The notes: generated by a model from the sequence alone, not told the origin. 36,367 bases of DNA from Alphaproteobacteria bacterium (GCA_017425725.1 JAFOXU010000018.1:1-36367); one strand, 5' to 3'. Positions 9,164 through 28,490 are shown, numbered from the stretch's first letter. Program-made: numbers and translations.

Positions 9164-9208
9164 CTACGGATCAGAAGGTTGAGGGTTCGAATCCTTCTGG
9201 GCGCGCCA
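9164..9208 (+). other. 3-prime fragment of a tRNA gene (anticodon-loop-like CTACGGA to CCA end), not a complete tRNA; probable att core
   Basis: T-arm GAGGG-TTCGAAT-CCTTC, acceptor 3-prime strand TGGGCGC, discriminator G, then CCA. The matching 5-prime acceptor strand GCGCCCA and a D-arm are absent upstream. ACG sits at the anticodon position, suggesting an Arg tRNA (inference). Confidence 0.7.
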
Positions 9209-9214
9209 CGATTT

Positions 9215-9237
9215 ACCGCAGATTTCTGCGGTTTTTT
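9215..9237 (+). terminator. Intrinsic terminator directly after the tRNA fragment (phage-supplied terminator for the reconstituted tRNA)
   Basis: accgcaga/tctgcggt stem followed by six T, 7 nt after the CCA end. Confidence 0.7.
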
Positions 9238-9318
9238 AATGTTTTTACTGTGGCAACCTGTATCCGTATTTTTCGCTTTTTTTGTCAAAAAATGGGTGTT
9301 TTTAGGGGTATTTTACAT

Positions 9319-9341
9319 AAAATCTGCACAAAATCTGCACA
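9319..9341 (+). repeat. Two tandem arm-type repeats AAAATCTGCACA (11-bp register) on the int-proximal arm
   Basis: Read directly as ataaaatctgcacaaaatctgcacag. A degenerate copy, tttctgcaca, lies at 9389-9398. Confidence 0.6.
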
Positions 9342-9401
9342 GTATAACTCATTGTTATTACTTAATTTGTGTATTTTTGGGTAAATATTTTCTGCACAAA
9401 A

Positions 9402-10418
9402 CTATTTATCAAACAATGCAGTTAATGCTGCTTGCGATTCATTATTGACCAAGTGTGCATACTTGGTTGTGATCGATATATCACTGTGTCCTAAAACGTT
9501 CTGTACCACACGCAGGTTTCCTGTCTTTCGCAATAGCCATGTGGCTGTCGTGTGGCGTAATGTATGAAAATTTCTGTATGGCACCTTTGCCCTTTCAAAT
9601 GCAGCATGCCATGCCATTTTTATATCACGTATCTTATGTCCTTTGTACGTAAACACGTATTCGTGATCACGTGGCAAAGATAATAATAATTGCTTTAACT
9701 GTGCAACCATTGGTACAGAATGCGGATTGCCGTCTTTGCCCATGTAAATAATCTGGTTGTTATCCCAATCTATCTGATCCCATTTAAGCGACAATATACG
9801 ACCACGTCTTAAACCGGTATAAACAGCCGTCAGTATAATCGGCTTTAAATGTTCCGCAGACGCATCGATAACTTTCTGCAATTCATCCCAGTCTTTGAAA
9901 TACTTAATGTTTTCTTTTGGTTCTTTTAATCGGAAAGACAATATCTTGAAATCAGGTATGCGACAATCCCATCTGTTCTTTGCCCTGGTGCAGATTGCCG
10001 ACAATAAACATAAATATCTGTTGGCTGTCGCATTTGATCTACCAGCATTGGTAAACGTGGTCATCAAATGGTTAACATCGTTCTTTGTAATCTGTGATAA
10101 TAATATATCCCCGTCAATGATAGTTAACAGCCGTCTTAACTTGCTAAACACATCAACGGAATAAGATAAATTCTGCCCATATTCTGTCCACCACTTTGCA
10201 CATGCAGAATCAAGTGTGATTTCGTGTGTGACGGCTGGGGAATTACGTATAGCGTTTATGCGTTTAATGCAGTATTCTTGTGCGCGTTCGATGTCTGTTT
10301 CGCCACTAGATTCGCGAATGATAACTCTGCGTCCTTCAACAACGAACGAGATATACGCGTGCCAGATTTCGCCACGTTTGTATAATCTGTATGGTGCATT
10401 TGTGTTATTGTTTGCCAT
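9402..10418 (-). CDS. int: Tyrosine recombinase / phage integrase
   Basis: 338 aa. The C-terminal catalytic block is HTLRHTTATWLLRKTGNLRVVQNVLGHSDISITTKYAHL (R..H..R...H..Y pattern). The N-terminal arm-binding-like motif is YKRGEIWHAYISF. It lies next to attP. Confidence 0.92.
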   Translation of the reverse strand: MANNNTNAPYRLYKRGEIWHAYISFVVEGRRVIIRESSGETDIERAQEYCIKRINAIRNSPAVTHEITLDSACAKWWTEYGQNLSYSVDVFSKLRRLLTIIDGDILLSQITKNDVNHLMTTFTNAGRSNATANRYLCLLSAICTRAKNRWDCRIPDFKILSFRLKEPKENIKYFKDWDELQKVIDASAEHLKPIILTAVYTGLRRGRILSLKWDQIDWDNNQIIYMGKDGNPHSVPMVAQLKQLLLSLPRDHEYVFTYKGHKIRDIKMAWHAAFERAKVPYRNFHTLRHTTATWLLRKTGNLRVVQNVLGHSDISITTKYAHLVNNESQAALTALFDK

Positions 10419-10576
10419 CTATCAAGATCCTCTTTTCTGAAACGCACACCCTTTCCGTATGGCTTTTCTGGTATTCTACCTGCTTCAACTTCCTGTATAA
10501 AGACTTTTAACGACATTTGCCCAGTTTGTTCGCGTAAATACTTTATGGCTGCGTTCTGTGTATATAGTTTATTCAT
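10256..10576 (-). CDS. xis: Excisionase-like / MerR-type HTH DNA-binding protein
   Basis: The first 55 aa look like Xis-family HTH (IKYLREQTG...GVRFRKEDLDRW). AAAGGA SD. The last 54 codons overlap int in another frame. Confidence 0.55.
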   Translation of the reverse strand: MNKLYTQNAAIKYLREQTGQMSLKVFIQEVEAGRIPEKPYGKGVRFRKEDLDRWQTITQMHHTDYTNVAKSGTRISRSLLKDAELSFANLVAKQTSNAHKNTALNA

Positions 10577-10603
10577 GTTCGTTTCCTTTACTTTTGTTTT
10601 TTC

Positions 10604-10792
10604 TTAACTATGTTTCTTAAAGTATTTTGCTATTTTGTCTGATACGATTTGTATTTCCCAGAATAAAAAATATATATCTAATTCTTTTCTTCCAATCCAC
10701 TTATCATACCAAAAACCAAAGCGGCAAGATTTCCACCAGACAGATATGTCTAGCCACCAGTAGCATTTTTTTGTTTCCCAATGCGTTCTCAT
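10604..10792 (-). CDS. Hypothetical Trp-rich small protein, 62 aa
   Basis: ATGA coupling to the upstream gene. Unusual W/F/Y-rich composition. No homology recognised. Confidence 0.4.
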   Translation of the reverse strand: MRTHWETKKCYWWLDISVWWKSCRFGFWYDKWIGRKELDIYFLFWEIQIVSDKIAKYFKKHS

Positions 10793-11151
10793 TTTACTTC
10801 TCCTATTTCTGTAATTGCTTTTTTTGCTCTATCAACCATATCTTTGCCATAAGTCAAATCATTTGCAATTTCATTTAAGGCATTGAAAGCAATATAAAAT
10901 CTTTCTTTAATAGCAAAAGGTGGCTGGTTGGTTTCTGGTTTGTATTTACTTAAATCCATGGTAATTTCAAAGCCAATTTGTAATGTTTTGTTATCGTAAA
11001 AACCTAATTTCCAACCTTTTTCAGTATATTCTTTTAATAACTTTGACATATCTGCTTCGTCATCAACGGTTATGGTTGTGCGTTCATATACTTTTATTGT
11101 TTTTTTGCCACGAATATAATTACTTTTTTGTGTGTCTTGGTGTATTATCAT
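10789..11151 (-). CDS. Hypothetical protein, 120 aa
   Basis: Strong AAGGAG SD (the same 20-nt initiation region as the PAPS-reductase-like gene). Ordinary amino-acid composition. Confidence 0.65.
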   Translation of the reverse strand: MIIHQDTQKSNYIRGKKTIKVYERTTITVDDEADMSKLLKEYTEKGWKLGFYDNKTLQIGFEITMDLSKYKPETNQPPFAIKERFYIAFNALNEIANDLTYGKDMVDRAKKAITEIGEVK

Positions 11152-11164
11152 CTCTGTTTCTCCT

Positions 11165-11938
11165 TTATTGTTGTCCTAGTGTGCAGAATATACCGCATTC
11201 AACATAGCACGATTTTGGTTTTCTGCCCACTGCATTTTCTGGTAATTCGTCTAAAAAGATATGTCTTGGTTCATTGCCTGCACCTAAATCAACCAGACGG
11301 CAACCCAATCTGCGTGATTGTTCTGCTCTCTGCTTGAATATTTCAGGGAAGTGTTTGCGAACCATTTGCCAATACCACACTGAGCCAGATTTTACACAGC
11401 CAATGCAGTTTGCATTTGGAAATTCAAACTTGGTGTATATCTCTGGCAATTTTATACCTGCCATTTCCAATTCGTTGAAACAGCGGTGTTTATCCCACCC
11501 AGCATCTATCAGCGGACAAATCAGTTTGTATCCCTTGTTCTTTGGTGCAGAATTAAATCTATCCTGTCGTTGTTTTTCTTCCACTGTATAGCCCATAACA
11601 ATCGCATCTGTATCTTTATTAAAGCCGTTGTCGTTTTCCCATTGTGAGCGTGCATTTTGCTTTAATTCCAGTGTGCAAGGTGCGAAGTGTGGTGTGGACA
11701 TAACTCCGTATTCATCAAACACCTTTGTAATATCGCAGTGCTTAAAACAGGGATTAGTAGCACTTTCAATTTTGATACCAAGCCACTTTTCACAATCTTC
11801 CAAGAACCGTTTATTGTCTTCGTGTTCGTTTATAACAGGGTTATTTACAACACGGATATTCTCTCTGCCATATTTTTCAATGGTTAGTTTCGTGGCACAG
11901 GCACTCGCTGCACCGCAAGAAAACCAACACACTATCAT
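11165..11938 (-). CDS. PAPS-reductase-family / adenine-nucleotide alpha-hydrolase-like protein
   Basis: 257 aa. N-terminal PP-loop-like VCWFSCGAASACAT. Central APCTLELK...DAIVMGYTVEE. C-terminal NCIGCVKSG cysteine pair. This order is typical of the PAPS_reduct fold. Confidence 0.6.
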   Translation of the reverse strand: MIVCWFSCGAASACATKLTIEKYGRENIRVVNNPVINEHEDNKRFLEDCEKWLGIKIESATNPCFKHCDITKVFDEYGVMSTPHFAPCTLELKQNARSQWENDNGFNKDTDAIVMGYTVEEKQRQDRFNSAPKNKGYKLICPLIDAGWDKHRCFNELEMAGIKLPEIYTKFEFPNANCIGCVKSGSVWYWQMVRKHFPEIFKQRAEQSRRLGCRLVDLGAGNEPRHIFLDELPENAVGRKPKSCYVECGIFCTLGQQ

Positions 11939-12042
11939 CTCTGTTTCTCCTTAAATTGAATAACCAACTGTAATTGTTTTTCGAACGGAATTAAAAGTTG
12001 TCCGTCTTTCTTCCTTTCTGGTTCTGTCATTGTTCTCATCAT
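11935..12042 (-). CDS. Small ORF, 35 aa (MMRTMTEPERKKDGQLLIPFEKQLQLVIQFKEKQR)
   Basis: AGGAG SD 5-6 nt upstream. The stop overlaps the next ATG (ATGA). Below the length cutoff of the ORF track. Confidence 0.4.
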   Translation of the reverse strand: MMRTMTEPERKKDGQLLIPFEKQLQLVIQFKEKQR

Positions 12043-12043
12043 A

Positions 12044-12106
12044 TTAGTTCTCCTTATCTATCATTAACCAACAGATAACCATCAATCCAAATAATACCCA
12101 AAACAT
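12044..12106 (-). CDS. Micro-ORF, 20 aa hydrophobic peptide (MFWVLFGLMVICWLMIDKEN)
   Basis: GGGAGG SD 6 nt upstream of the ATG. It ends 1 nt before the next ATG. One predicted TM segment. Confidence 0.3.
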   Translation of the reverse strand: MFWVLFGLMVICWLMIDKEN

Positions 12107-12126
12107 TTTTAACCCTCCCTTGTTGT

Positions 12127-12615
12127 TTATTTCACTGCCAGATTTTCCTTGTTAACCAGATATGCACCATCGATTGTACGTCCTGCTTTCAACGCTTCCT
12201 TAATCGCAACCTTGTCTGGTGCGGTTGTGGAATTGGTGCGCATAAACTCTGGGTTGTTAAAGTCAGGCGATACCCACACGCTACTGCTTGTACGTGTGCC
12301 GACTGTGAATGTACCTGCGGTTATCTTTTTTTTGCCTGATCGGGTAAGCATAGACATTATGTACTGCTCTAAACGTAATAATGCCTTGCTTTCCCTTTCG
12401 GCTTTTTCGGACAACCGATTGCTTTCTGCACGTAATGCATCAATTTCAGATTGCTTACGCGCACGTATCTTGCATAATGATTCCAGGCCGTTTGTAATTG
12501 TATCTGTACGGGCCTGCATAAGATTATCCAGGGCTGTCTGGTCTGGTTCTTCTTCGCCATACAATAACTCGCTGATGGCGTTATCTAATAATTCGATCTC
12601 TTCATACAATTTCAT
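12127..12615 (-). CDS. Siphovirus Gp157-family protein
   Basis: Begins MKLYEEIELL... with a central coiled coil and C-terminal ...KEALKAGRTIDGAYLVNKENLAVK, the pattern typical of Gp157 family members. GGAGG SD. ATG at 12615 is preferred over the track start. Confidence 0.65.
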   Translation of the reverse strand: MKLYEEIELLDNAISELLYGEEEPDQTALDNLMQARTDTITNGLESLCKIRARKQSEIDALRAESNRLSEKAERESKALLRLEQYIMSMLTRSGKKKITAGTFTVGTRTSSSVWVSPDFNNPEFMRTNSTTAPDKVAIKEALKAGRTIDGAYLVNKENLAVK

Positions 12616-12616
12616 C

Positions 12617-13405
12617 CTATGCCTCCATTTGTAAATCATTCAAAATTTCGGCTTTACGTGCAGATGCCAACGGTATCAATTCATTGATATTCGGATTACC
12701 TTTCTGACTGTTAAGTATTTCTGAAATGTTGGCCAATGTGGTGCAACGTTCCATTTCGCCACGGAAAGCATTAACCGACATCCAATCGTCTGGACGCGCT
12801 GTCGCAGGTGCAACAAATGGAATTTCATCGCCAACCAGGTCTTCTATTTGTTTATCGGCTTTCTTTGGTGTTGGTTTTTCTGTTTTAAGCGGTGTTTTTG
12901 TGCCAAAGGTATAAACTGTCTTTCCTTTGCCGTTCACGATTTCCAGCGCGATTATTTCGCGGTTATCGTTGTATTCAATCTTTGATACAGAAAACTTTTC
13001 ATTACATGTATATTTTTGGCCAAATTGTTTTATTTCAACATAATCAGATGAAATCCAAATAAATGGCGCAGTATATAATTCACGACCAATTCCCCATTTA
13101 AACCCGGCGCGTTTGAAAGCGTCTGATGCTTCGCCTTTCTTTTCGTTGCCTTCGCCGTCTTCACGTGATTCAATACCGCAATCTTGTTTCCAAACCCATT
13201 GACCCTTGGTTTGTTCCCAAACACCAATCTTGCAATACATATTTCCTTTGATTTCTTCGTATTCACACTGCCAATTATTCGCACCAAACTCTTCATCCAA
13301 CACGTCCATGTCGGTACGTGCGGTTTTATATAACAATGCAACCAGGCCATTTTGCTTAACCTGTTTTACTTTAACTTCGATCTCGTTCGCTTTAAGTAAT
13401 CTCAT
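12617..13405 (-). CDS. Rad52/Sak-family single-strand annealing protein
   Basis: MDVLDEEFGANNWQCEYEE..., then KKGEASDAFKRAGFKWGIGRELY, matches the Rad52/22 and Sak signature (fG..gW..., A.K.A...fG.G..LY). Confidence 0.75.
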   Translation of the reverse strand: MRLLKANEIEVKVKQVKQNGLVALLYKTARTDMDVLDEEFGANNWQCEYEEIKGNMYCKIGVWEQTKGQWVWKQDCGIESREDGEGNEKKGEASDAFKRAGFKWGIGRELYTAPFIWISSDYVEIKQFGQKYTCNEKFSVSKIEYNDNREIIALEIVNGKGKTVYTFGTKTPLKTEKPTPKKADKQIEDLVGDEIPFVAPATARPDDWMSVNAFRGEMERCTTLANISEILNSQKGNPNINELIPLASARKAEILNDLQMEA

Positions 13406-16420: not shown

Positions 16421-16843
16421 ATGTTTTTTAAATCAACTACACCTTATCGTGAAATACAGAACTGGATAACGGTTCAACTGCCTGCGGTATATCAATCTGC
16501 CAAGAACGGAATTGATATTGAAATCAAACCACATCACAACAAACGCAGCAATCAACAAAATCGGTTTTTAATGGCCATTATGGTTGCGCTGGTGCGGTTC
16601 TGTAATGAAACAGGATATATACCTGCCGGGCTTTGCCGTTGGGTTATTCGACCAACCGTCTTGAAAGAATACTGGAAAGGCAGATACGGTATAACCATAA
16701 CCCAAAACATGGACACTGTCGCGTTTGGTCGCTTTATCGACTTTATCCAGCGCACACTGGTCGAAGAAACATCTGGCGAATGGGAAGTTTTAACCCCAGA
16801 TTCCGCATATATCCAATCACTTTTAGCCGAAGGGGGATTTTGA
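16421..16843 (+). CDS. NinB/Orf-family recombination mediator-like protein
   Basis: HHNKRSNQQNRFLMAIM resembles lambda NinB ERNRSLDQNRKLWACL. ITQNMDTVAFGRFIDFIQ resembles STSRMRVGEFAELLELIQ. ATG at 16421 with an AAGGGGG SD. Confidence 0.55.
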   Translation: MFFKSTTPYREIQNWITVQLPAVYQSAKNGIDIEIKPHHNKRSNQQNRFLMAIMVALVRFCNETGYIPAGLCRWVIRPTVLKEYWKGRYGITITQNMDTVAFGRFIDFIQRTLVEETSGEWEVLTPDSAYIQSLLAEGGF

Positions 16844-17544
16844 TGCTAGACGAATACATAAATCGTATTATCAATGCCGATTGCCTTGACATCTTAAAAC
16901 AGTTGCCAGACAAGTGTGTTGATTTGGTGCTTACTGACCCACCTTATGGCGGTGGTGGAAAAGAAAAAGCATTTGCAGACGGCGATAATCGCTTTGGTGG
17001 CAGGTTTGATAAATATAAAGCACAAGAAATAAAATGCGTCAGAACTGGCGGTAATTGGAACCATAAATACGAAGATATTCAAAAAATAACTGATTGGGAC
17101 TACGCACCTTCACAGGAAGTATTTGATCATATTTTTCGTGTTTCAAAAAATCAAATTATCTGGGGGGGGAATTACTTCGATTTACCGCCAACACGGTGTT
17201 TTAACGTATGGAAAAAATTAACAATATCGGAAAATTTCACAATGGCAATGGCAGAGTACGCATGGACAAGTTTTAATGATAACGCAAAAGTATGGGAATT
17301 TGCACCACAAGATTCCGAACGCTTTCATAAAACACAAAAACCGCTTGGCTTGATAATGAAACAGATTGAACTGTATTCCAAACCTGGCGATTTAATCCTT
17401 GATTGTTTTTCTGGTTCCGGTACTACCGCAGTCGCTTGTCACAAATTAGGCAGGCGGTTTATTTGTGTCGAATTAAACCCTTATTATTACGAAAAATCAG
17501 TCGAACGGCTGGAACAAGAACAACGCCAACAGACATTGTTTTAG
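16843..17544 (+). CDS. DNA methyltransferase 1 (beta-class, DPPY motif; probably N6-adenine)
   Basis: Starts at an ATG overlapping the NinB-like stop (TGATG). Motif IV is LTDPPYG near the N-terminus. TQKP and motif I DCFSGSGTT lie near the C-terminus. Confidence 0.85.
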   Translation: MLDEYINRIINADCLDILKQLPDKCVDLVLTDPPYGGGGKEKAFADGDNRFGGRFDKYKAQEIKCVRTGGNWNHKYEDIQKITDWDYAPSQEVFDHIFRVSKNQIIWGGNYFDLPPTRCFNVWKKLTISENFTMAMAEYAWTSFNDNAKVWEFAPQDSERFHKTQKPLGLIMKQIELYSKPGDLILDCFSGSGTTAVACHKLGRRFICVELNPYYYEKSVERLEQEQRQQTLF

Positions 17545-18099: not shown

Positions 18100-18771
18100 A
18101 TGATAGACCAATATATAAACAAAATTATAAATGCTGATTGTTTGGACATATTAAAGCAGTTGCCAGATAAGTGTGTTGATTTGGTGCTTACTGACCCACC
18201 GTATGGGATTGGTTATGATAAAAAAGCCACTAGATATAATGGAACGTTTCAAGGAAACGGGTTGGCTAGACGTGGCGTTTATAAAGAATGTGATTGGGAT
18301 AAAAAAACGCCAGACAAAGAAGTGTTTGATGAAATTTTAAGAATTAGCAAAACACAAATTATATTTGGTGGAAATTATTTTGCAAATATGTTGCCAAATA
18401 GTAAACATTGGATTGTTTGGGATAAACAAACAAATGGAGATTGGGCAGATTGCGAACTTGCTTGGACATCGTTTGGTAAACCTGTAAAAAAATATGAATA
18501 TCTGTGGAATGGTATGTTGCAAGAAAATATGAAAGAAAAAGAAATACGCATACACCCAACGCAAAAGCCAGTTGGTTTATTTATGAAAATCTTACAAGAT
18601 TACAGCAAAGAAAACGACCTTGTCCTTGATTGTTTCAGCGGCTCAGGCACAACAGCAGTTGCCTGCCACAAACTCAAACGCAGGTTTATCTGTATTGAAA
18701 AAGACCCTGAATACTGGAAAGCCAGTTGCGAACGATTAGAACAGGCACAACGCCAACAAACACTATTTTAA
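18100..18771 (+). CDS. DNA methyltransferase 2 (paralogue of MTase 1 with a different central region)
   Basis: The same N-terminal INADCLDILKQLPDKCVDLVLTDPPYG and C-terminal LDCFSGSGTTAVACHKL.RRFIC...ERLEQ.QRQQTLF as MTase 1. The middle 110-130 aa diverge. Confidence 0.85.
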   Translation: MIDQYINKIINADCLDILKQLPDKCVDLVLTDPPYGIGYDKKATRYNGTFQGNGLARRGVYKECDWDKKTPDKEVFDEILRISKTQIIFGGNYFANMLPNSKHWIVWDKQTNGDWADCELAWTSFGKPVKKYEYLWNGMLQENMKEKEIRIHPTQKPVGLFMKILQDYSKENDLVLDCFSGSGTTAVACHKLKRRFICIEKDPEYWKASCERLEQAQRQQTLF

Positions 18772-20128: not shown

Positions 20129-20515
20129 CTATGGCTTGAACACACGATTAAACGATGCTGGTGCATAAATAGACAAATGGCACCACGTTTTCGTGTATTC
20201 TGGTGATTCCATCCACAAACCGCATTCTACTAACTTGTTCGGATTTGCTTTTAACCATGCTTTCAATTTACCGTCTGCGTCTGCTATGTCCACTGCTGCA
20301 CCATACAAATGCGATGAACCCATTGCGGACGGATTTATACGCTTCTGGTCTGCCAGTGATCGCAGGCACGATGATGCATTGCGCGGTGGTGTAAAGCCCA
20401 ATTTGTTTAACTTATTGCAAAGATCTTTCAAATTACGCATTGTTACCGCATCAACTTCGCTTTCTTTCCATTTATGTTGACCGGCGTTTAATAATTCTTG
20501 AACCGTGAACTTCAC
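20129..20515 (-). CDS. Endolysin, peptidase M15 (VanY / L-alanyl-D-glutamate peptidase-like)
   Basis: 128 aa. SCLRS...SSHLYGAAVDIAD...WCHLS gives the H-x-D...H zinc-ligand pattern of M15 peptidases. GTG start with an AAAGGGGA SD. Confidence 0.75.
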   Translation of the reverse strand: MKFTVQELLNAGQHKWKESEVDAVTMRNLKDLCNKLNKLGFTPPRNASSCLRSLADQKRINPSAMGSSHLYGAAVDIADADGKLKAWLKANPNKLVECGLWMESPEYTKTWCHLSIYAPASFNRVFKP

Positions 20516-20533
20516 TTTAATCCCCTTTGGTTA

Positions 20534-20558
20534 TAAAAAAATACCGCCGTGGCGGTAT
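20534..20558 (-). terminator. Intrinsic terminator immediately upstream of the endolysin gene
   Basis: ataccgc/gcggtat stem followed on the minus RNA by seven U. It lies between the 60-aa gene and the endolysin gene. Confidence 0.65.
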
Positions 20559-20578
20559 CTCTTCCTGATTTGTTATCT

Positions 20579-20761
20579 TTAATAACATTGTTCTTCTGCA
20601 TATTCTCTGGTTGCACCAGTTAACAGAATATTATCAATACAATTTTGTTCTACATGTGAATCAACAGCAGACATCCAGGCAATAAACGCAAACTCAGCAC
20701 CATAAGCCAACACAAACGGTGCAACTGCAAATAATAAAATCTTTCCGATCAATCTTTTCAT
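20579..20761 (-). CDS. Small secreted/membrane protein, 60 aa
   Basis: N-terminal signal-like segment KILLFAVAPFVLAYG and a second hydrophobic stretch. ATGA coupling to the upstream gene. Confidence 0.5.
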   Translation of the reverse strand: MKRLIGKILLFAVAPFVLAYGAEFAFIAWMSAVDSHVEQNCIDNILLTGATREYAEEQCY

Positions 20762-21267
20762 TTATTGAACCTTGGATCAAATGCACCTGCTGTCGTTCCT
20801 TCATATGGAAAAACTTGACTGACAGGCACACCTGGATTATTTAACGCCATTATAACTGCGTTTATATTGTTTTGCAAGTCCTTTTTGCTGTCTGCTGCTA
20901 TTTTCTTGTCACTCCATCCTTGAAAGTACTTTTTCTTGATTCTATCAAATCGTTCTTTTTCTTCGCCTAAACGTAAAGCATATTCGGCTGCTTCTGGGCC
21001 AAGTTGTGCAGCATTATACATACCACGGCTATGATAAAAATTATCTAATTTTGTGCCATCAAAGCCCTTTGCACCCAATGGTATATTTTCTCGGTTGTAC
21101 TGATTAACCGCGTCTGACACATAATTCATTGCAATATATTCATCGGCTAATCTTTTTATAACTTTGGCTTTATTTGCCATTTGTTTAAATACATTTGGTC
21201 TTTCTGTGTTTTCTCTGGCTCTGACTAATGCATCTGCCAGTTTTTGTGTTATTTCTTCGTTTTCCAT
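20758..21267 (-). CDS. Serum-amyloid-A-like domain protein, 169 aa
   Basis: DNFYHSRGMYNAAQLGPEAAEYA against vertebrate SAA [23 protein letters not shown] gives 10 of 19 identities plus conservative changes. A downstream acidic/Ala block resembles SAA EDSLADQAAN. Confidence 0.45.
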   Translation of the reverse strand: MENEEITQKLADALVRARENTERPNVFKQMANKAKVIKRLADEYIAMNYVSDAVNQYNRENIPLGAKGFDGTKLDNFYHSRGMYNAAQLGPEAAEYALRLGEEKERFDRIKKKYFQGWSDKKIAADSKKDLQNNINAVIMALNNPGVPVSQVFPYEGTTAGAFDPRFNK

Positions 21268-21268
21268 C

Positions 21269-21589
21269 TTAAAACACCTTTCTTCTGATTATGAAAAATA
21301 TTGCCAGGCAAAGCGCAACGAACAACCCGGCGGAAGACAAACGCCAATAATCCGTTTCCGCTTTGCATTTGGCAATTTCTACTGCGTGCGCTTGCTCTGC
21401 TGAAAGCAACCCTGCACGACAGGTTTTTAACGCTTCTTTTGCTTTGTTAATGTCTGGGTTCTTACCCAAATCAACCAATGCACAATCGACCAACTGTACA
21501 TGTTCGTCAACAATGTGACTGGTCGCTGTTTTGTGCATACACCCACTTAACAAAAACGTCAAAATTAACAAAACTGTAAAATGTTTCAT
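21269..21589 (-). CDS. Lipoprotein with C-terminal TM anchor (unimolecular-spanin-like architecture)
   Basis: Lipobox LLSGC at residues 13-17 after a signal peptide. C-terminal TM segment GLFVALCLAIFFII followed by RRK. Confidence 0.5.
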   Translation of the reverse strand: MKHFTVLLILTFLLSGCMHKTATSHIVDEHVQLVDCALVDLGKNPDINKAKEALKTCRAGLLSAEQAHAVEIAKCKAETDYWRLSSAGLFVALCLAIFFIIRRKVF

Positions 21590-21608
21590 ACTGTCTTCCT
21601 TTGGTTTT

Positions 21609-22505
21609 TTATCTTGTTCTTTGATTTAATGTTGCCGTCTGTGCTTTTCCTATAACCATTTGTGGTATCGTAGTTATCTTAATATCTGGTATTATCTGGT
21701 AACCTTTATCTTTTGTTGCAATACAGCGCAAATTTACTTCACCAAATCCCGACATTGCTGTATGGTTGTAAAATCTTTCTGCAAAGTTCGCATTGTAATC
21801 GATTGTGCGTCCTTTCTGATAAGATGGTGTTTCAATACACTGACGGTTTTTAAGCACAACATCACCATTTTTGTCTATATGCATAACTGGTGCAGAATAA
21901 TCAACCAATGCGTTGTGTTTATGGCCCAGCCATAACAAATCTGCATTGATACCCTTTGCCAATGCACCAAAATCTAACATGCCCTTGGTTGCTGGTGCAG
22001 AACCACCACATCCATGGTGTGCATAAATATCATAATGTGTTTCGCGTCTATTTGATGGTTCTTTGAATGTAAAACGCAAGAAATTCGCATAGTTCCCATA
22101 CAATATTTTATGTTCTTGGCCCATATTCAACATCGTGGTTATCATTTCCAACACGTCCAGGCCGTTGTATTTCATAATGCTTTCTTCGTGGTTACCACGA
22201 CCAATAAACAAGATGTTCTTCTGGTATGGCTTCAAAAACTCAAATGCTTCGTTTAACTTAACGTTTAACTGGTTATCAGTATTGGTAATATGATGGGCAG
22301 TTGCTCGCTTTCTGTCGCCAAGTATAATCATATCAAAAAAATCGCCATTGATTAAAATATACCGCCCATCTTTCAAACAGAAATCAAGATGTTTTTTAAG
22401 CGTTTCGCGATCACAATCCGGGCTATCAAAATGTACATCGCTGAATAATGCTAACTTTATTATTTTACCTGTTTTTGCTGTCGTGATCCAACTAAACGCT
22501 TTCAT
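21609..22505 (-). CDS. Calcineurin-like metallophosphoesterase
   Basis: All five motifs occur in order: DVH, GDFFD, GNHE, HHG, GHKH. The ATG at 22505 with a GGAGGA SD is preferred over the track start. Confidence 0.8.
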   Translation of the reverse strand: MKAFSWITTAKTGKIIKLALFSDVHFDSPDCDRETLKKHLDFCLKDGRYILINGDFFDMIILGDRKRATAHHITNTDNQLNVKLNEAFEFLKPYQKNILFIGRGNHEESIMKYNGLDVLEMITTMLNMGQEHKILYGNYANFLRFTFKEPSNRRETHYDIYAHHGCGGSAPATKGMLDFGALAKGINADLLWLGHKHNALVDYSAPVMHIDKNGDVVLKNRQCIETPSYQKGRTIDYNANFAERFYNHTAMSGFGEVNLRCIATKDKGYQIIPDIKITTIPQMVIGKAQTATLNQRTR

Positions 22506-22528
22506 ATTATTTATCCTCCATATTTTGA

Positions 22529-22870
22529 TTATCTTGCTTTTGTGCAACTATTTTGCATAATGCACCATGTACATGGGTTCATCTTGTACGATTCCCAGTT
22601 TTCAAGTGTTTTTCTGCAAAATTCTCTATCCGCGACTCTTATGTCATACCATTGGATTGCATATGACACGCGGTCAAACTTTCTCTCTTCCCATTGGCAC
22701 GGCTTTAAATTGCTTTTGATCTCGTTAATAACCTTGTGTGCCGGAAATATGTTTTGTATTGTTGTGTGAAAATGTGGTGGTATTTTGCTTTGTGGAAAAT
22801 AATGTTCTCTGCTAAATCTGCCCTTTGGTATTGGTAATCCTGATAAAAAACAAATATGTTCCTGCTTCAT
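22529..22870 (-). CDS. HNH endonuclease
   Basis: C..SG...REHYFPQS...N.FPAHKVINEIKSN fits the HNH core. ATG at 22870 with a GGGGGA SD. Confidence 0.65.
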   Translation of the reverse strand: MKQEHICFLSGLPIPKGRFSREHYFPQSKIPPHFHTTIQNIFPAHKVINEIKSNLKPCQWEERKFDRVSYAIQWYDIRVADREFCRKTLENWESYKMNPCTWCIMQNSCTKAR

Positions 22871-22871
22871 G

Positions 22872-23132
22872 TTATTCCCCCAATTTTGCACCGTATTCTT
22901 TGTCGCCCAATTTAACGGACACTTTCTTGTTTTCGCGCCATACTTCGAATGCCCAAAGTGTTACCCCGGTTATGCATCCGCAACACCCGACAATCGCTGC
23001 TGGCCATGTATGTATGTCGCCAACCCCCATATACAAACGCCATACCAGGTTCACGATGATTGATAAAAATCCAACCACGCGTGCATATGAATATTCGTTA
23101 TTTGCGTCTTTTAACCACACGATGTTTGCCAT
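22872..23132 (-). CDS. Holin-like protein with two TM segments, 86 aa
   Basis: TM1 is VVGFLSIIVNLVWRLYMGV and TM2 is WPAAIVGCCGCITGVTLWAF. The C-terminus is charged. Confidence 0.45.
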   Translation of the reverse strand: MANIVWLKDANNEYSYARVVGFLSIIVNLVWRLYMGVGDIHTWPAAIVGCCGCITGVTLWAFEVWRENKKVSVKLGDKEYGAKLGE

Positions 23133-23388
23133 GTTTTTTGTCCTTTTCTTCTTGCCATTTACTTACGCGTTCACAGATATATGAATTACCACCGCGTTTA
23201 CGGTATTCGTCATATAAACTCATGATTGTTTGATCATCATCAGGGTTTGATTGAATGTTCTGCATAATTTCTACACGGCGCAGACGCATGTGCATGCCAT
23301 CCCTGTGTTCTTTGATAATCTGTAAAATAAATAAAACTGTTGGCGCGACAACTGATGATATAAGCGCAACACTTACTGAATCTGACAT
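23098..23388 (-). CDS. Membrane-anchored protein, 96 aa (N-terminal TM, basic C-terminus); possible holin/antiholin partner
   Basis: AGGAGG SD. TM segment VALISSVVAPTVLFILQII. First gene after a terminator. Confidence 0.55.
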   Translation of the reverse strand: MSDSVSVALISSVVAPTVLFILQIIKEHRDGMHMRLRRVEIMQNIQSNPDDDQTIMSLYDEYRKRGGNSYICERVSKWQEEKDKKHGKHRVVKRRK

Positions 23389-23403: not shown

Positions 23404-23431
23404 AAAAACCGGCCTTATAAAGACCGGTTTT
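23404..23431 (-). terminator. Intrinsic terminator ending the tail-fibre operon
   Basis: aaaaccgg.c...g.ccggtttt hairpin, followed on the minus RNA by UUUUUAAUU. It lies 10 nt after the 66-aa gene stop. Confidence 0.6.
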
Positions 23432-23440
23432 CCTGACGGC

Positions 23441-23641
23441 TTATTTTTTACCGCCTTTCTTTTTTCCACCGCATGGCATTTTGGCCTCCTTTTTTAGCAG
23501 TTTGTTAAGTGTTCGAAAAATTATGTTTTCCTTGAACGTGTTTCGTTCTTCAAATTCAGCACGTTTGCCGATATTAAAGTTCGATATTGGGCGGATATAG
23601 CCCATCGAGCGACTAAAAGTTTCACATTTTTGTCTTGGCAT
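23441..23641 (-). CDS. Stand-alone NrdD C-terminal (glycyl-radical) domain-like peptide, 66 aa
   Basis: SRSMGYIRPISNFNIGKRAEFEERNTF against E. coli NrdD TRRVCGYLGSPDARPFNAGKQEEVKRRVKH. The R..GY, FN.GK, E and R positions are conserved. Confidence 0.55.
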   Translation of the reverse strand: MPRQKCETFSRSMGYIRPISNFNIGKRAEFEERNTFKENIIFRTLNKLLKKEAKMPCGGKKKGGKK

Positions 23642-23651
23642 ATTATTCTCC

Positions 23652-24002
23652 TTAGTCTGTTATTGGGTCGGTTGGATAAGGATAGCGTTCCTTAATTTCT
23701 TCAACCTTTGCATCACGTTCGGCAATTAACTCCGCAATTTCTGCGGTAATTTCTTCCGTTTGTTCCGCATCACGCAGACGGCTGATATGCGAAGTGATTG
23801 GGTCAACTTCCGCCTGATAAGCCCTTGCACGTGCTTCTTTCTGCTCTTCCTTTGTTGGTGCTGGTACAGGTGGCACTTCTTTGATTTCGTATCTGCGTTC
23901 ACCAATTACATCAATAAATGCGTTATTAGCATTACACCAAATTGCTGCTGCTGGCGGATATAGACCTTCAAAGATTTGACCGATGTAAAATTCTTCTTTC
24001 AT
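23652..24002 (-). CDS. Tail-fibre assembly/chaperone-like protein, 116 aa
   Basis: Directly downstream of two fibre genes. Pro-rich linker followed by a charged helix. Same architecture as the 118-aa gene at 34032. Confidence 0.45.
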   Translation of the reverse strand: MKEEFYIGQIFEGLYPPAAAIWCNANNAFIDVIGERRYEIKEVPPVPAPTKEEQKEARARAYQAEVDPITSHISRLRDAEQTEEITAEIAELIAERDAKVEEIKERYPYPTDPITD

Positions 24003-24032: not shown

Positions 24033-25109
24033 TTATGCTGCTATACCTTTAACTTCCCACCAAACATCCATATTCGCACTCGCTGAATTAAATTGCCCTA
24101 ACCGAACTTGTGTTGTTGTTCCTGCATTGGCACTAACAGTGCTATTTGCACCAAAAGTTCCAGAAGAATTAACTTGGTTGCTTCCTGCTTGCGCAATATA
24201 ATCAGTATTTGCCATAACTACTGGTAAAGTTATAAGACCCTTAGAATTATGTGCTATTTGTATTTTCTTCTGTCCTTGCTCGACCCAGCCATCACTATAT
24301 TTTCTGTACCACGTATAGTTATTTCCAGCAGTTGGGTCTTGTTTTTCGACAATATGTGCAAATGTAGCATTACTTCCGTCCAAATCAACCTTGTTGTTAA
24401 ACAAACTTGCATTCAACCCAGCGGTGTTTTCCAGTGCTGTCTGTGTAAAGTTGCCTACGTAGAAATACAGATACTGTTCTGTGGCACGCTGTTGAACTGG
24501 TGCGTCGTCTTGATATGCCGAAGACTGTAACGAAGCGTTTAATTTACTTGGCCCTGTACCAACCCAGCTTCCACCACCGAGTCCAGCACTATTTGATACT
24601 GTTCTTTGTATTGCCCCTTCTGTATATATTTTTTGTGAATCATTTAACCAAGAAAAAATAGACGCATTTCCACTCGTAATATTCGGCAAACTTTCTGGCA
24701 CGTACTTCCCAACACTATCTCTTAAACCAACAAATCCATACTTTGTTCTTGGTAACTTAAAGCGTTGATTCACTGTGTCAATGATGTAATACCACGCCAT
24801 ACCTGTCGCGTTGTATATACTTACAACATTGCTTTCTTGTGAATCTGGGCAAATCTTGTGTCCATCGTCTGCAAGATAAAACTGCACTGTAATACCAGAT
24901 ATTGTTTCACTCGATAAACTCTTTCCGCTGATGTCGGATTCCAAGTGGTCGTATGCTGCTTCATACACGCCACCGTCTTGCCAAGAAAACGTATCGGCAC
25001 GAAGCCAAGATACATCATTAAGCAAGTGGTCAGCCCACTTATGGTCGAACAAATCAGGATGATAATTTATATGTCCTGCAATTACTTTATTCCCTTGTCT
25101 TATACTCAT
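24033..25109 (-). CDS. Tail fibre / receptor-binding protein 2, 358 aa
   Basis: The C-terminal module NNYTWYRKYSDGWVEQG...VWWEVKGIAA is homologous to the C-terminus of the 937-aa fibre. Confidence 0.7.
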   Translation of the reverse strand: MSIRQGNKVIAGHINYHPDLFDHKWADHLLNDVSWLRADTFSWQDGGVYEAAYDHLESDISGKSLSSETISGITVQFYLADDGHKICPDSQESNVVSIYNATGMAWYYIIDTVNQRFKLPRTKYGFVGLRDSVGKYVPESLPNITSGNASIFSWLNDSQKIYTEGAIQRTVSNSAGLGGGSWVGTGPSKLNASLQSSAYQDDAPVQQRATEQYLYFYVGNFTQTALENTAGLNASLFNNKVDLDGSNATFAHIVEKQDPTAGNNYTWYRKYSDGWVEQGQKKIQIAHNSKGLITLPVVMANTDYIAQAGSNQVNSSGTFGANSTVSANAGTTTQVRLGQFNSASANMDVWWEVKGIAA

Positions 25110-25120
25110 AATTTACTCCC

Positions 25121-27934
25121 TTATGCCGCCATACCTTTAACTTCCCAAACAGATGTTAATGCGTATAAATTGTTTGCACCATAACCTGTCACGTACGTTG
25201 TTCCTGTTGTTGTGCGTGTTCCGAATTTTATCCAATTCACATTTTGGTCTGTATTTCCATATACATGTCCATTTATATAATATTTAGAATTGGCCATTGT
25301 GACAGGAAAGTTTATTGCAGCACTAGACGATGACCCAGAAACCTTTCCGCCTTGTTCAATCCAACCGTCTGCGTACTTGCGATACCAAGTATAGTTGTTA
25401 GCGCTTGTCGGTTCTTGAAATTCTATTACTTGATGTCCTTTCTGCACAAACAGGTTGTTGCACTGGCTTTGTGTATATGCCTGATATGCCGTGGCTTCTT
25501 GGTCGTCTGTGATATAGCACACCCAATCAGGATGGTTTGTCGCTACATCTTGAGTTGTGTATTCTGCCAATGTGCCAACCCAATCATAAACAGGGTTTGT
25601 TGCACCAATAGCAGTATTTGCATTTATAGTTGCAACTGCTTGAAGTTGGTTGCTTCCATTTTTTGTAATAGTGCTGTTATCAATATCAACCGAACCACCA
25701 CCACCTGCATCCAAAGCAATCGTATCGCCACTGGCTTGGTTCAATGTGAACGAACCCTTGGTTACGCCACCTTGTGTGATAGTAATTGTAGGGTTATTTA
25801 CAGTTGGTATTGTTGGTGTTCCGCTCAAATCAGAATATGCGCCAGTAGAAGCAACCGTTGCCAGAGAGCAGGCTGTGGCCGTTCCGTCTGATGCAACATA
25901 TATAGGCTGTGTTGAAGAACCAACCGCTGTGGATGGTGTATGCTTTACAGCATTATTATTAAAGAAATCTCTACGAACCGCACAACTTGCGTGTGAAGAA
26001 GTTGCTGGAATAAGTAATAATTTAGAAGTTCCATTAGCAATCATTAAAAGGTTATTCTGCGGTGCGGTGGGGTCGCTTCCTGCACCAGCTAAAAACCCTG
26101 TCCAGCCATCGCTCGTTTGTATTGCTGAAAACTTTGCAATATTAACGTCGCTATCGTCTGTAAATTCTATTGAATTAAAATGATTTGATGAAGGATTTGT
26201 TCCTTTGTGTAAATTATCGCCTTTTAAGGTTAAAGCTGTTAAACTTGCACTAACAGAATCTGTGTTTTCAAATGTCTTTGCACCAGTAATAGTTTCTGTG
26301 CCTGTTTTATGAACTACATCAGTATTGTTTGCAGGTGTATAACCAAGTGCTGTTGTCACATCGCCCGAAGTAATTCCTGTGATATATCCTGCACCATTAG
26401 TTAAGTCGTTTGTGTCTGTTGGCACGCTTATATTTGCCGTCACAGCCGAACTAGCATTCGCAGTAAATGTTGCTACGTTTGTGCCATTCTTTTGTATTGT
26501 TAAAGTAGCGTCATTGACCGTTGGTATTGTTGGTTTGTTAAACAAATCGTCATAATCGCCTGTGGTGGCTACCGTGGCTAAATCGCCCGGTTGAACTGCT
26601 GTATCTGCTAATGCACCTTGTGCTGATGTTGCATAGGATGTGCTTGCTGTGTATGCTGCACTACCTAAACCATAAACAGCCACGTCTGCACTTGTTCCAT
26701 TTGTATTTACAGATATTGTTCCGTTTGTTGAACCTGTGGAAACACTACGAACACCACTATTTGTGAAATTTGTTCCGGTTAGTGTTATACCATCGCTACC
26801 AGTATATGTTGTATCTGTTGCAGATATAGTTGTTCCACTGATTGTGATATTGCTACCTGCTGTCAATGCGTCTTGCTTAGCGTTCCATGTTGTAATATCG
26901 CTTGATGTTACAAACTTATTTGTGCTTGTGCTATCGTCAACCAAATCAGCATCCAACATGTTGTTTACTGTGATTTCTGTTTGTAAACCAGACACCAAAT
27001 CAGCAACACTGAAACGAATTGTTGAACCGTCTTGCAATGTTAATACAACTTCTTTGGTTGCGCTATCGTATGATCCGCTTACAACAACAGATTCTAATGG
27101 CAAATCAATCGTTTGTGCTGTGCCGATATTATTACCATCCTGATCTTTTAATTGCAATGTCACAACGTATGTTGAACTGTTAATTGTCATTGAAACATTG
27201 GCTGTATATTTTGTTGAATCGGGCAATGCATTAACATCTGCCGCTGTTGTTGGAACAGTAATGTTTATCGTCTTATTGCTTGTTGCATTTGCTGTAAAAC
27301 TATCAACCGTTGTGCCATTTTTCTGAATTGTTAGTGTTGCATCTCCGATTGTTGGTTTGTTAATTAAATCTGTGTAAGATCCAGATGTTGCAACTGTCGC
27401 TAAATCTGCTATGTTTGCTTTAAGATCCAACGCACTCTGTGTTGCTGTGCTGATTGGCTTATCTAAATCACTTGTGTTATCTACATTACCTAAACCAACC
27501 TGTGTTTTTGTCACTTGGTGCGGATTGTTTGTATCGGCAATATGATTATCCATTGTGCCTTTATTATCTGTAATCTGGTCTTGCAAACCATCGTCAGCAT
27601 CGGCACGTAATTGTGCTTCGGCATCAACTGCATCTGTTATGTATTGTGTTAAATCTGTTTGGTCTGTTATATCGCCGACAATGTCACCCCAATGTGCGAT
27701 CACGTCACTTACATACGGCAAATCGTTCCAGTATGTAACACCGTCACCGGCTTTAACACGGTGTGTATCTGCTTCTATACCAAATTCCCCACGTTGCAAT
27801 AATGGGTTTTTGTCTGCCCATACTGCTGCATCAAAAAATGGGTTTCTTAATCTGCGATAACGTCTGCTTGGGCCTTGTACAGAACCAAAGCGTGTCATCG
27901 GCTTTTCTTCATAACTATTATGCTTTTGTGCCAT
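25121..27934 (-). CDS. Long tail fibre, 937 aa (ATG at 27934; the track's GTG at 27946 would add 4 aa)
   Basis: N-terminal NP.LQRGEFGIEADTHRVKAGDGVTYWNDLPY fibre-anchor motif. Three internal ATVA(T/S)(T/S)G.Y.DL...PTI repeats. C-terminal YTWYRKYADGWIEQGG module. Confidence 0.85.
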   Translation of the reverse strand: MAQKHNSYEEKPMTRFGSVQGPSRRYRRLRNPFFDAAVWADKNPLLQRGEFGIEADTHRVKAGDGVTYWNDLPYVSDVIAHWGDIVGDITDQTDLTQYITDAVDAEAQLRADADDGLQDQITDNKGTMDNHIADTNNPHQVTKTQVGLGNVDNTSDLDKPISTATQSALDLKANIADLATVATSGSYTDLINKPTIGDATLTIQKNGTTVDSFTANATSNKTINITVPTTAADVNALPDSTKYTANVSMTINSSTYVVTLQLKDQDGNNIGTAQTIDLPLESVVVSGSYDSATKEVVLTLQDGSTIRFSVADLVSGLQTEITVNNMLDADLVDDSTSTNKFVTSSDITTWNAKQDALTAGSNITISGTTISATDTTYTGSDGITLTGTNFTNSGVRSVSTGSTNGTISVNTNGTSADVAVYGLGSAAYTASTSYATSAQGALADTAVQPGDLATVATTGDYDDLFNKPTIPTVNDATLTIQKNGTNVATFTANASSAVTANISVPTDTNDLTNGAGYITGITSGDVTTALGYTPANNTDVVHKTGTETITGAKTFENTDSVSASLTALTLKGDNLHKGTNPSSNHFNSIEFTDDSDVNIAKFSAIQTSDGWTGFLAGAGSDPTAPQNNLLMIANGTSKLLLIPATSSHASCAVRRDFFNNNAVKHTPSTAVGSSTQPIYVASDGTATACSLATVASTGAYSDLSGTPTIPTVNNPTITITQGGVTKGSFTLNQASGDTIALDAGGGGSVDIDNSTITKNGSNQLQAVATINANTAIGATNPVYDWVGTLAEYTTQDVATNHPDWVCYITDDQEATAYQAYTQSQCNNLFVQKGHQVIEFQEPTSANNYTWYRKYADGWIEQGGKVSGSSSSAAINFPVTMANSKYYINGHVYGNTDQNVNWIKFGTRTTTGTTYVTGYGANNLYALTSVWEVKGMAA

Positions 27935-27935
27935 T

Positions 27936-28490
27936 TTACAACTCACTGTTTATCCATGCGTCAATATCGTCATCGTCAACGTCAATATCAACGGGTTCCG
28001 TTTCTTCATCTGGTTCGTACCTCTGTGCATGTTCAATTTCTTGCCAACACATCTCGGCTAATATTCCCCAGTACTTATGCTCTATGTCTTTTTGGTGTTT
28101 GTTTTTAAAATTCTGTAAAACTTGCCTGATCACACTATCTATGTACGGCAAATCTAAATATCCCTTTAATTCCCACAGGGTGCGCATTAACGATAATCGC
28201 AATACCACAACCATATCTTGCATATCGGACTGGCTGTGTTGCTCTCTGTATGCTTTTTTACGCAAATAACGTGCCAATATCTCGTCTAAAACGTCATTTT
28301 GCACTTTGTCTGCGTTTGTGTCGTTAAAATGTAGTAGCGATAATTGTAGCGATATAACGATATCGCTAATTGGTCGCAACTGTTCTTCGCCTTTGCGCCA
28401 GAAACGAAAAACACGCCGTAAATTACTGTCAGGCGTGTCTTTGTGAACCGCTATATCGTCCACATCCTGCGTTTTTATAATGAAAGTCAT
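27936..28490 (-). CDS. Hypothetical protein with strongly acidic C-terminal tail, 184 aa
   Basis: ORF coupled to its neighbours. The C-terminus is EPDEETEPVDIDVDDDDIDAW. Confidence 0.6.
   Translation of the reverse strand: MTFIIKTQDVDDIAVHKDTPDSNLRRVFRFWRKGEEQLRPISDIVISLQLSLLHFNDTNADKVQNDVLDEILARYLRKKAYREQHSQSDMQDMVVVLRLSLMRTLWELKGYLDLPYIDSVIRQVLQNFKNKHQKDIEHKYWGILAEMCWQEIEHAQRYEPDEETEPVDIDVDDDDIDAWINSEL

Follow-up and report, generated by a model that had tools for sequence, protein, structure and literature searches.

A phage-encoded stand-alone peptide homologous to the glycyl-radical C-terminus of anaerobic ribonucleotide reductase, and its counterparts in bacteria with a split nrdD gene

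Analysis of a 36,367-nucleotide stretch of DNA assigned to an Alphaproteobacteria bacterium (GCA_017425725.1, JAFOXU010000018.1:1-36367; hereafter, the window), which is a circularly permuted temperate phage genome, identified on the minus strand, from 23641 to 23441, a real open reading frame (ORF) for a 66-aa peptide, MPRQKCETFSRSMGYIRPISNFNIGKRAEFEERNTFKENIIFRTLNKLLKKEAKMPCGGKKKGGKK, that is homologous to the C-terminal end of NrdD, the class III (anaerobic) ribonucleotide reductase (RNR). Sequence comparison indicates that this peptide is a diverged extra copy (paralogue) of a normal, detachable subunit of the host enzyme. The window leads to two linked candidates in class III RNR biology, namely, the division of NrdD into two chains that occurs naturally in entire lineages of gut bacteria, one cultured species among them, and phage genes that encode the radical peptide alone.

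The resemblance of the stand-alone peptide to the glycyl-radical C-terminus of NrdD, on which the original prediction was built, is statistically real. Residues 4-36 match positions 531-562 of the 562-position Pfam profile PF13597 (E=2e-5; 23.9 bits, just below the gathering score of 26.2), and the NCBIfam model TIGR02487 is matched at positions 549-579 of 581 (E=1.1e-5; 24.3 bits against a threshold of 326). The segment SRSMGYIRPISNFNIGKRAEFEER aligns with the C-terminus of the NrdD profile and with residues 610-642 of Thermotoga maritima NrdD (4COI), which the family profile pairs with peptide residues 5-36, and the predicted R-x-x-G-Y motif followed by the N-x-G-K...E...R block is present. 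Gly14 corresponds to the glycine of the RxxGY motif in the T. maritima enzyme (residue 621 by alignment count); in NrdD, the glycine of this motif bears the radical (G681 in Escherichia coli, G580 in T4). A PDB sequence search with the single peptide gave no match, and the search with the family profile retrieved only T. maritima NrdD, with an E-value of 0.75 that is not significant alone and serves here for the alignment. Along with the fused NrdD proteins (T. maritima 4COI, T4, E. coli), the phage peptide contains the pattern SR-x-M-G-Y-x-R-P ... F-N-x-G-K ... E ... E-R but lacks the ATP-cone, the barrel with the catalytic Cys finger loop and the zinc ribbon: only the last ~32 profile positions are matched, and a single Cys (C6) precedes Gly14 instead of the CxxC...CxxC arrangement. 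At its other end, the peptide runs 28 residues past the end of the NrdD profile. The absence of the catalytic barrel extends to the rest of the window, where tblastn detected neither an NrdD barrel gene, with a host NrdD large chain as the query, nor nrdG. No match of the peptide to PF01228, the domain of pyruvate formate-lyase (PFL) and GrcA, was obtained even at E<=10, and no GrcA model is among its NCBIfam matches.

Among 5.8 billion proteins, 291 homologues of the peptide were found, the best 120 of which are all 51-89 aa long. A hidden Markov model search of 1.84 billion cluster representatives retrieved 3,658 proteins at E <= 1e-3, of which the lower-ranking ones presumably include fused NrdDs, and 143 at E <= 1e-10, with the best 150 all 47-114 aa in length. 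Gly14 is invariant in all 121 phage-type sequences and in all 60 distinct host sequences; R17, P18, F22, G25, E29, E32, R33, F36 and L49 (the second Leu of KLLKK) are likewise invariant in the 121 phage-type sequences. Within the 33-codon core compared across 25 loci, synonymous differences are saturated and non-synonymous ones are few, the median ratio of non-synonymous to synonymous substitution rates (dN/dS) being 0.06 over the 88 pairs with estimable dS. Given the hundreds of small homologues and this dN/dS value, the 66-aa ORF is a selected gene, not a chance ORF, and evolves under strong purifying selection. The same data bear on the possibility that the peptide is what remains, without function, of a once complete phage nrdD, or a piece of the host nrdD region picked up by the phage. 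Such an origin would account for the match to the last ~32 NrdD profile positions only and for the score of 23.9 against 26.2 bits; however, the ORF has its own ribosome-binding site and start codon, its homologues of the same size number in the hundreds, no NrdD-like sequence lies upstream, and a dN/dS of ~0.06 with saturated dS effectively refutes this explanation, which we regard as exceedingly improbable. Together, the Pfam, NCBIfam and PHROG matches, the small homologues and dN/dS identify the ORF (23441..23641, minus strand) as a phage-borne stand-alone glycyl-radical peptide of class III RNR.

Such mini-genes, for which a search in other phages had been suggested, do recur. The radical-peptide gene was found, always stand-alone, in 23 phage contigs (5 by exact protein look-up and 18 from IMG/VR), with no nrdD-large (barrel) gene or nrdG nearby. 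Five more distant clusters that were sampled all come from phage-like contigs, and in none does the gene adjoin a barrel gene; the neighbours of these distant stand-alone copies are genes for a phage lysozyme, the small terminase subunit, a cell-wall hydrolase, methyltransferases or a metallophosphoesterase. No near-identical DNA was found among GenBank phages, and a tblastn search of 50,697 phage records with the peptide gave only two weak matches, to a fused NrdD of an unannotated faecal phage and to a 144-aa coding sequence (CDS) of the archaeal virus ANMV-1.

The cellular members of the family provide the decisive context. A scan with the family patterns of 185,579 species, each represented by one genome, yielded 224 relatives, nearly all of them in metagenome-assembled genomes (MAGs) of gut and rumen Alphaproteobacteria labelled Ca. 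Enterousia, 'Rickettsiales' or UBA. For example, at locus L006 (7894-10885), a 686-aa large ORF (7894-9954) ends with a zinc ribbon (...CPKHGYLPGRHDFCPKCDAE...CDNHE*), a separate small ORF (9977-10165), MNPQTQQRTKCETFSRSMGYIRPISNFNIGKRAEFEERNTFTEANSLTAGARHCELMKRAA, lies 23 nt past it, and the gene for a 234-aa radical S-adenosylmethionine activase (10181-10885) follows directly. This operon, in which genes for a ~680-aa chain and a ~60-aa radical peptide precede nrdG, is represented by loci L006-L085: in all 78 nrdD-holding genome loci of the order Rs-D84 (Ca. Enterousia), the large ORF stops short of the radical motif and a ~60-aa ORF lies between nrdD and nrdG, and none of the 78 contains a fused nrdD. 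The coverage of PF13597 is complementary, with the host large chain, which also carries the ATP-cone and retains the zinc ribbon (CPKHG...CPKCD), spanning positions 1-529 of 562, the host small protein 529-562 and the phage peptide 531-562. In most host loci, the reading frame changes between the large and the small ORF, and an ATG preceded by a purine-rich spacer opens each small ORF. These features exclude read-through, recoding, frameshift fusion and assembly error as explanations of the split; split-intein trans-splicing of the two pieces was ruled out by inspection, there being no intein-sized extension on either of them. The gene structure thus indicates that the host NrdD natively consists of two pieces, a large catalytic chain and a ~60-aa radical peptide.

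The same organization is found in another phylum-level group, the Sutterellaceae (L120-L122; 2971-5972), where a 675-aa NrdD, a 57-aa peptide that starts 2 nt past the stop codon of the large gene, and NrdG are encoded as neighbours on contigs that are chromosomal and reach 2 Mb. The split operon is present here in Ca. Aphodousia, Sutterella sp. and the cultured Parasutterella secunda. The small product of P. secunda (WP_289580348.1, 60 aa) carries the automatic RefSeq annotation 'anaerobic ribonucleoside-triphosphate reductase', and the host small ORFs are mostly unnamed or labelled 'hypothetical protein' in public records. Such peptides are now annotated either as hypothetical proteins or, misleadingly, as the full reductase, and length-filtered RNR surveys will score the large chains as truncated.

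The small subunits of the split host enzymes are about the same size as the phage peptide and are its closest relatives found, with 72-94% identity in the core. Comparison of the phage family with the host small subunits using hhalign gave a probability of 99.9% (E=1e-33; 72% identity over 47 columns), a significant profile-profile similarity to separately encoded radical subunits. The conserved radical-domain core of the window peptide, residues 3-38 (RQKCETFSRSMGYIRPISNFNIGKRAEFEERNTFKE; 23528..23635, minus strand), is 94% identical to the L006 subunit, and the positions that are invariant in the host core (R, C, E, F, SR, MG, RP, FN, GK, E, F, ER, F, E) are all conserved in 114 distinct phage sequences. 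Within this core, the GGC codon at 23600..23602 specifies Gly14, the predicted glycyl-radical site (SRSMGY), as indicated by its invariance and the alignment with T. maritima NrdD. From the residue after ...TF(K/T)E onward, the phage and host sets diverge systematically. The host tail reads ...N-x-L-(T/S)-x-G-x-R-H-x-(E/D)-L-(L/M)-K-K-A-A in all 60 distinct sequences, whereas the phage tail is N-(I/V)-I-F-x-x-(I/L)-x-K-L-L-K-K, with or without E-x-K-M-P-C-G-K-K-K-G-G-K-K; the Rs-D84-type signature L-(T/S)-x-G-x-R-H-x-(E/D)-L-(L/M)-K-K-A-A is missing from the phage peptide. Thus, in place of the host ending ...GxRHxELLKKAA, the phage peptide has ...NIIFRTLNKLLKK plus or minus KMPCGKKKGGKK. The phage-specific C-terminal segment, delineated by column-by-column comparison with the host sequences, comprises residues 39-52 (NIIFRTLNKLLKKE; 23486..23527, minus strand) and is predicted, with low confidence, to be helical. 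Judging from these alignments, the phage peptide keeps every constrained position of the radical core and carries a C-terminal module of its own. The genes also differ in context, the host gene being located between nrdD-large and nrdG and the phage gene between tail-fibre and lysis genes.

The phage copy was not captured recently, given that the window core and the host genes have a nucleotide identity of no more than 0.70-0.76, with agreement at ~50% of the third codon positions. The G+C content is 0.39 in the window and 0.36-0.43 in the host loci. Recent gene conversion between phage and host, an idea suggested by the KRAEFEERNTF motif common to L006-type hosts and the phage, was rejected because the host cores are closer to each other (0.83-0.92 nucleotide identity) than to any phage core (at most 0.78). 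The same divergence bears on an explanation by integration, in which the phage would integrate at the 3' end of the host nrdD and its attachment site (attP) would carry a replacement end. The core identity of up to 94% to the host gene product is what such a duplicate would display, but the gene is 13 kb from the integrase gene (9402-10418), inside the late operon, its C-terminus is unlike that of the host, and at the observed nucleotide and third-position identities there is no identity block for site-specific recombination. On the grounds of position and nucleotide divergence, this explanation was rejected, and its probability appears negligible.

In glycyl radical enzymes, the radical glycine is the site at which oxygen destroys the protein. 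The reading that we favor, with some confidence, is that the 66-aa peptide would be activated by the host NrdG and dock into the host large NrdD chain, sustaining the supply of deoxyribonucleoside triphosphates (dNTPs). Under this scenario, the phage peptide would dock into the large chain in the same manner as the host subunit, NrdG would abstract the C-alpha hydrogen of Gly14, and the glycyl radical would generate the thiyl radical for nucleotide reduction. Damage by oxygen or other radicals would then destroy the small peptide only, and extra copies supplied by a phage or prophage would keep the host RNR armed and dNTPs available for the replication of a 36-kb phage in a host with a genome of less than 1 Mb. 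In this scheme, the radical peptide would be the consumable component of the host RNR. Docking in place of the host subunit is suggested by the conservation of all ~20 constrained core positions, beyond the local motif needed by the activase. The host group is characterized by reduced genomes of less than 1 Mb and a strictly fermentative metabolism (PMC12306168), so that repeated replication of a 36-kb phage should depend on de novo dNTP synthesis.

Several observations weigh against activation and docking as the function of the phage peptide. Its last third is devoid of the host-invariant GxRH...LLKKAA and has a different helix and a Lys-rich tail instead, so that it may not be a simple equivalent of the host subunit. 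The gene is located at the end of the late (structural) operon, with no sigma-70-like promoter found on the minus strand between 22800 and 24300 (the consensus used may not be that of the host), and late expression fits dNTP supply less well. An AlphaFold2 model of the peptide alone, built from the family alignment, places Gly14 at the tip of a hairpin and adds two helices, but the pLDDT of 58 denotes low confidence. Finally, the host was assigned from MAG binning and sequence similarity. A phage-type copy, on a phage-like contig (L008), and a split nrdD operon (L046) co-occur in one Ca. Enterousia MAG, subject to the caveat of MAG binning. The L008 copy itself (10001-10132) has only 44 aa, with RA where RP is otherwise invariant after the Gly motif, and its sequence suggests that it may be decaying.

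The first two of these points are compatible also with a modulatory or inhibitory role, which is made possible by the difference between the C-terminal third of the peptide and that of the host subunit. In that case, the phage peptide would compete for the large NrdD chain or act as a decoy for NrdG, and the altered helix and basic tail would modify RNR activity or block it, in the service of host takeover, the timing of late replication shut-off, or the exclusion of other phages. Apart from the late operon and the failure to detect a promoter of its own, such a role would be in line with the loss of the host-invariant G44, R46 and H47 (numbered from eight residues before the SRxMG motif) and of the terminal AA, combined with the conservation of the core needed for binding. 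However, none of the 121 sequences deviates at Gly14 or elsewhere in the radical motif although a Gly-to-Ala replacement would be the more effective poison, phages as a rule benefit from more rather than fewer dNTPs, and phage-borne spare parts such as Y06I of T4 activate their target enzymes. We therefore consider modulation or inhibition unlikely, if worth keeping in view, and return to activation by NrdG and docking as the preferred function. A broader generalization, which we put forward tentatively and with more doubt than conviction, is that many gut bacteria (Rs-D84, Sutterellaceae and probably others) possess a two-component class III RNR with a disposable ~60-aa radical polypeptide that would be exchanged after damage, and that phages of these hosts, as well as many other phages of anaerobes, encode their own variant, the altered C-terminus of which would out-compete the host subunit or escape its control, re-arming or re-programming the enzyme.

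Autonomous glycyl-radical proteins are known for a different enzyme: GrcA (YfiD) of E. coli and Y06I of T4 serve pyruvate formate-lyase, and a review of June 2026 lists the formate lyases as the only class of glycyl radical enzymes with identified spare parts, the existence of such parts in any other class being yet to be determined (PMC13450708). The phage peptide is similar to GrcA and Y06I in being a small stand-alone protein with a radical motif but no barrel (51-89 aa in the present family), T4 Y06I provides a phage-borne precedent, and the presumed logic is alike, a fresh radical part for an oxygen-sensitive glycyl radical enzyme. The differences are no less clear: GrcA and Y06I are homologous to PFL (PF01228) and the phage peptide to NrdD; GrcA has 127 aa with a disordered N-terminus compared to the 66 aa of the phage peptide; and GrcA rescues a fused enzyme after oxygen cleavage, whereas the host enzyme here is split by design. 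The proposal of a GrcA-like spare part is partly supported: the product is a small radical-motif protein without a catalytic domain, and an autonomous radical-carrying part for class III RNR is still its most probable putative function. With the host NrdD natively split and not matched by any fused enzyme in need of rescue, and with no PF01228 match, the phage gene is a paralogue of the host subunit and not a GrcA-like copy. The peptide is best described as GrcA-like in concept but neither a member of the GrcA family nor a complete NrdD.

Split catalytic chains are also known among the RNRs, namely, NrdJa/NrdJb of class II in Pseudomonas aeruginosa and NrdA-a/NrdA-b of class I in Aeromonas phage Aeh1 (PMC3267527), and phage nrdD genes can be interrupted by introns, inteins or endonucleases (PMC3653736). 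As in the operons described here, two polypeptides make up the catalytic component of these enzymes of classes II and I and assemble into the active form (PMC3267527; PMC3653736); unlike them, however, the known splits do not set the radical residue on a mini-subunit, and that in Aeh1 was caused by insertion of a homing endonuclease. A viral parallel is the 144-aa ANMV-1 CDS (AJP62049.1; L115:2686-3120, KP703175.1), annotated 'anaerobic ribonucleoside triphosphate reductase', which is virus-borne, comprises the NrdD C-terminal region only and ends with ...CEMYSRIVGYLRPVNQWNKGKLQEFKMRKEF. Its product shows 48% identity to the phage peptide across 33 residues but, in contrast to that peptide, retains the CxxC...CxxC zinc ribbon. 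In the searchable full-text literature, with subscription-only papers outside its scope, we found no description of a class III RNR with the radical domain encoded by a separate gene, nor of a phage gene for the NrdD radical domain alone.

The occurrence of a split nrdD in a cultured species makes the spare-part question raised in the 2026 review testable. If the two-component reading is true, this would be the first case of a spare part, or of a radical subunit that can be exchanged, in an enzyme class other than the formate lyases, and the phage genes would represent a new type of viral metabolic gene that supplies a cofactor-like peptide only. If, furthermore, the peptide is activated by NrdG and exchangeable, strict anaerobes with tiny genomes would have a cheap route of RNR repair, viruses a new minimal kind of auxiliary metabolic gene, and enzymologists an enzyme in two pieces whose radical domain could be labelled, mutated or swapped apart from the barrel.

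The locus of the 66-aa ORF has the hallmarks of accessory phage cargo. The ORF starts with the ATG at 23641 and stops with the TAA at 23441-23443. A Shine-Dalgarno (SD) sequence, AAGGAG (23648..23653, minus strand), read from the sequence, overlaps the TAA stop codon of the upstream gene for a 116-aa protein (23652..24002, minus strand), and the intergenic gap is 10 nt, an arrangement that is consistent with translational coupling; at other phage loci, genes of the 116-aa type and the radical-peptide gene are often stop-start coupled. Synteny across 24 phage loci shows that the 116-aa gene almost always directly precedes the radical-peptide gene. Its product has no Pfam or PHROG match, and a tail-fibre assembly role would be an inference from position only. 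Further upstream, in the same direction, are two tail-fibre genes for proteins of 358 and 941 aa (24033..27946, minus strand), the 941-aa protein matching tail-fibre PHROGs; homologues of these genes flank the radical-peptide gene in other phages.

The gene is, as originally noted, the last one of the tail-fibre block and is followed by a terminator: a hairpin with a 13-bp stem and a U-rich run that resembles an intrinsic terminator (23404..23432, minus strand; -19.5 kcal/mol, z=-3.7 by RNA folding) begins 9 nt past the stop codon. A simple terminator scan reported no terminator-like site on the minus strand and missed this hairpin. No Rfam families or tRNAs were detected in the window. Among the phage contigs, the gene is nearly always found right after tail-fibre genes or the homologue of the 116-aa gene and is followed by a second fibre module or lysis genes. 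In three related phages (L123, L124, L126), the 116-aa neighbour is 74-82% identical but the radical-peptide gene is absent; in L123, holin-like, lysozyme and spanin-like genes come immediately after the fibre-associated gene. The existence of related phages without the gene implies that it is accessory cargo at a module junction, that is, a moron or auxiliary metabolic gene, in agreement with the moron-like position that had been pointed out; a terminator of its own, another property of morons, is provided by the hairpin at 23404-23432, and hairpins are present at homologous loci, too.

In about 20 phage loci, the gene is tightly linked, often by stop-start coupling, to the fibre-associated 116-aa gene; this, together with the basic C-terminus, could also be taken to mean that the peptide has a virion or tail-fibre role unrelated to RNR chemistry, having been exapted for fibre assembly or being packaged via its Lys-rich tail. 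However, L123, L124 and L126 have the same fibre-associated gene without the peptide gene, the conservation pattern is exactly that of the core of the host RNR subunit, and the distant stand-alone copies occur in other phage contexts, next to lysozyme, terminase and methyltransferase genes. A structural role thus appears distinctly improbable, and it is quite unlikely that the function lies outside all the readings discussed here.

In the phages of loci L001-L004, L086 and L093 (about 10260-12700), the radical-peptide gene is located between two complete tail-fibre modules, each consisting of a large fibre gene and a gene for an Mtd_N-like protein of ~140-170 aa that shares a C-terminal block with the fibres of the window; this layout suggests duplication or exchange of modules around the radical-peptide gene. 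At L005, a resolvase/invertase gene lies just downstream.

The Lys/Gly-rich tail noted at the end of the peptide, which the translation includes, is a separable cassette that in the window happens to be fused in frame. The cassette, recognized by comparison across loci, occupies 23441..23491 (minus strand) and consists of an internal AAGGAGG (23485-23491), located 5 nt ahead of an ATG (23477-23479) that opens the mini-ORF MPCGGKKKGGKK. Its consensus is AAGGAG, 5-7 nt, ATG CCx TGY GGx (AAR)n GGx GGx AAR AAR TAA (MPCGKKKGGKK), with a GC-rich hairpin within ~10 nt. The mini-ORF codons vary synonymously, and the hairpin is found at that distance downstream in nearly all loci. In most of the phages, the MPCGKKKGGKK cassette is in frame with the radical-peptide gene. 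At L087 (10140-10195) and L089, a difference of 1 nt in the preceding A-run causes the radical-peptide gene to end ...KKLLKKGA*, and SD-ATG-MPCGKKKGGKK-TAA forms a separate mini-ORF in another frame; at L095 (near 6060), ~4 kb separate the mini-ORF and hairpin from the radical-peptide gene. The cassette of the window is preceded by an in-frame A_AAA_AAG heptamer. Candidate roles of the cassette are a micropeptide and a translation-coupled terminator control before the lysis genes.

Downstream of the terminator, the window encodes a lysis region (20129..23388, minus strand; Peptidase_M15_3, 5.5e-4; phrog_7339) that comprises genes for small membrane proteins of 96 and 86 aa, a 120-aa protein, a 312-aa metallophosphoesterase, a 106-aa lipoprotein-like protein, a 169-aa protein and a Peptidase_M15-like protein. 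The metallophosphoesterase (21609-22547, minus strand), which belongs to a 'DNA repair exonuclease' PHROG, is 74-87% conserved in other phages with the radical peptide (L089, L090, L100, L102), and at L109 (L109/L110), a Metallophos gene is located two genes from a distant stand-alone radical-peptide gene, so that a recurrent association of the two genes is possible.

Elsewhere, the window encodes the large terminase, a major head protein, the integrase, Erf, Gam, two DNA methyltransferases, the tail fibres and the lysis functions. The two methyltransferase genes (16633-17544 and 18100-18771, plus strand) belong to one PHROG and are ~550 bp apart, with an endonuclease/resolvase-like gene between them. 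A 425-aa GroEL/Cpn60-like protein, shorter than cellular GroEL, is encoded at 7470-8747 (minus strand; Pfam Cpn60_TCP1, 5e-20; phrog_5725, 1e-55), and a gene similar to 3'-phosphoadenosine 5'-phosphosulfate (PAPS) reductase is located at 11165-11938 (minus strand), near erf and gam.

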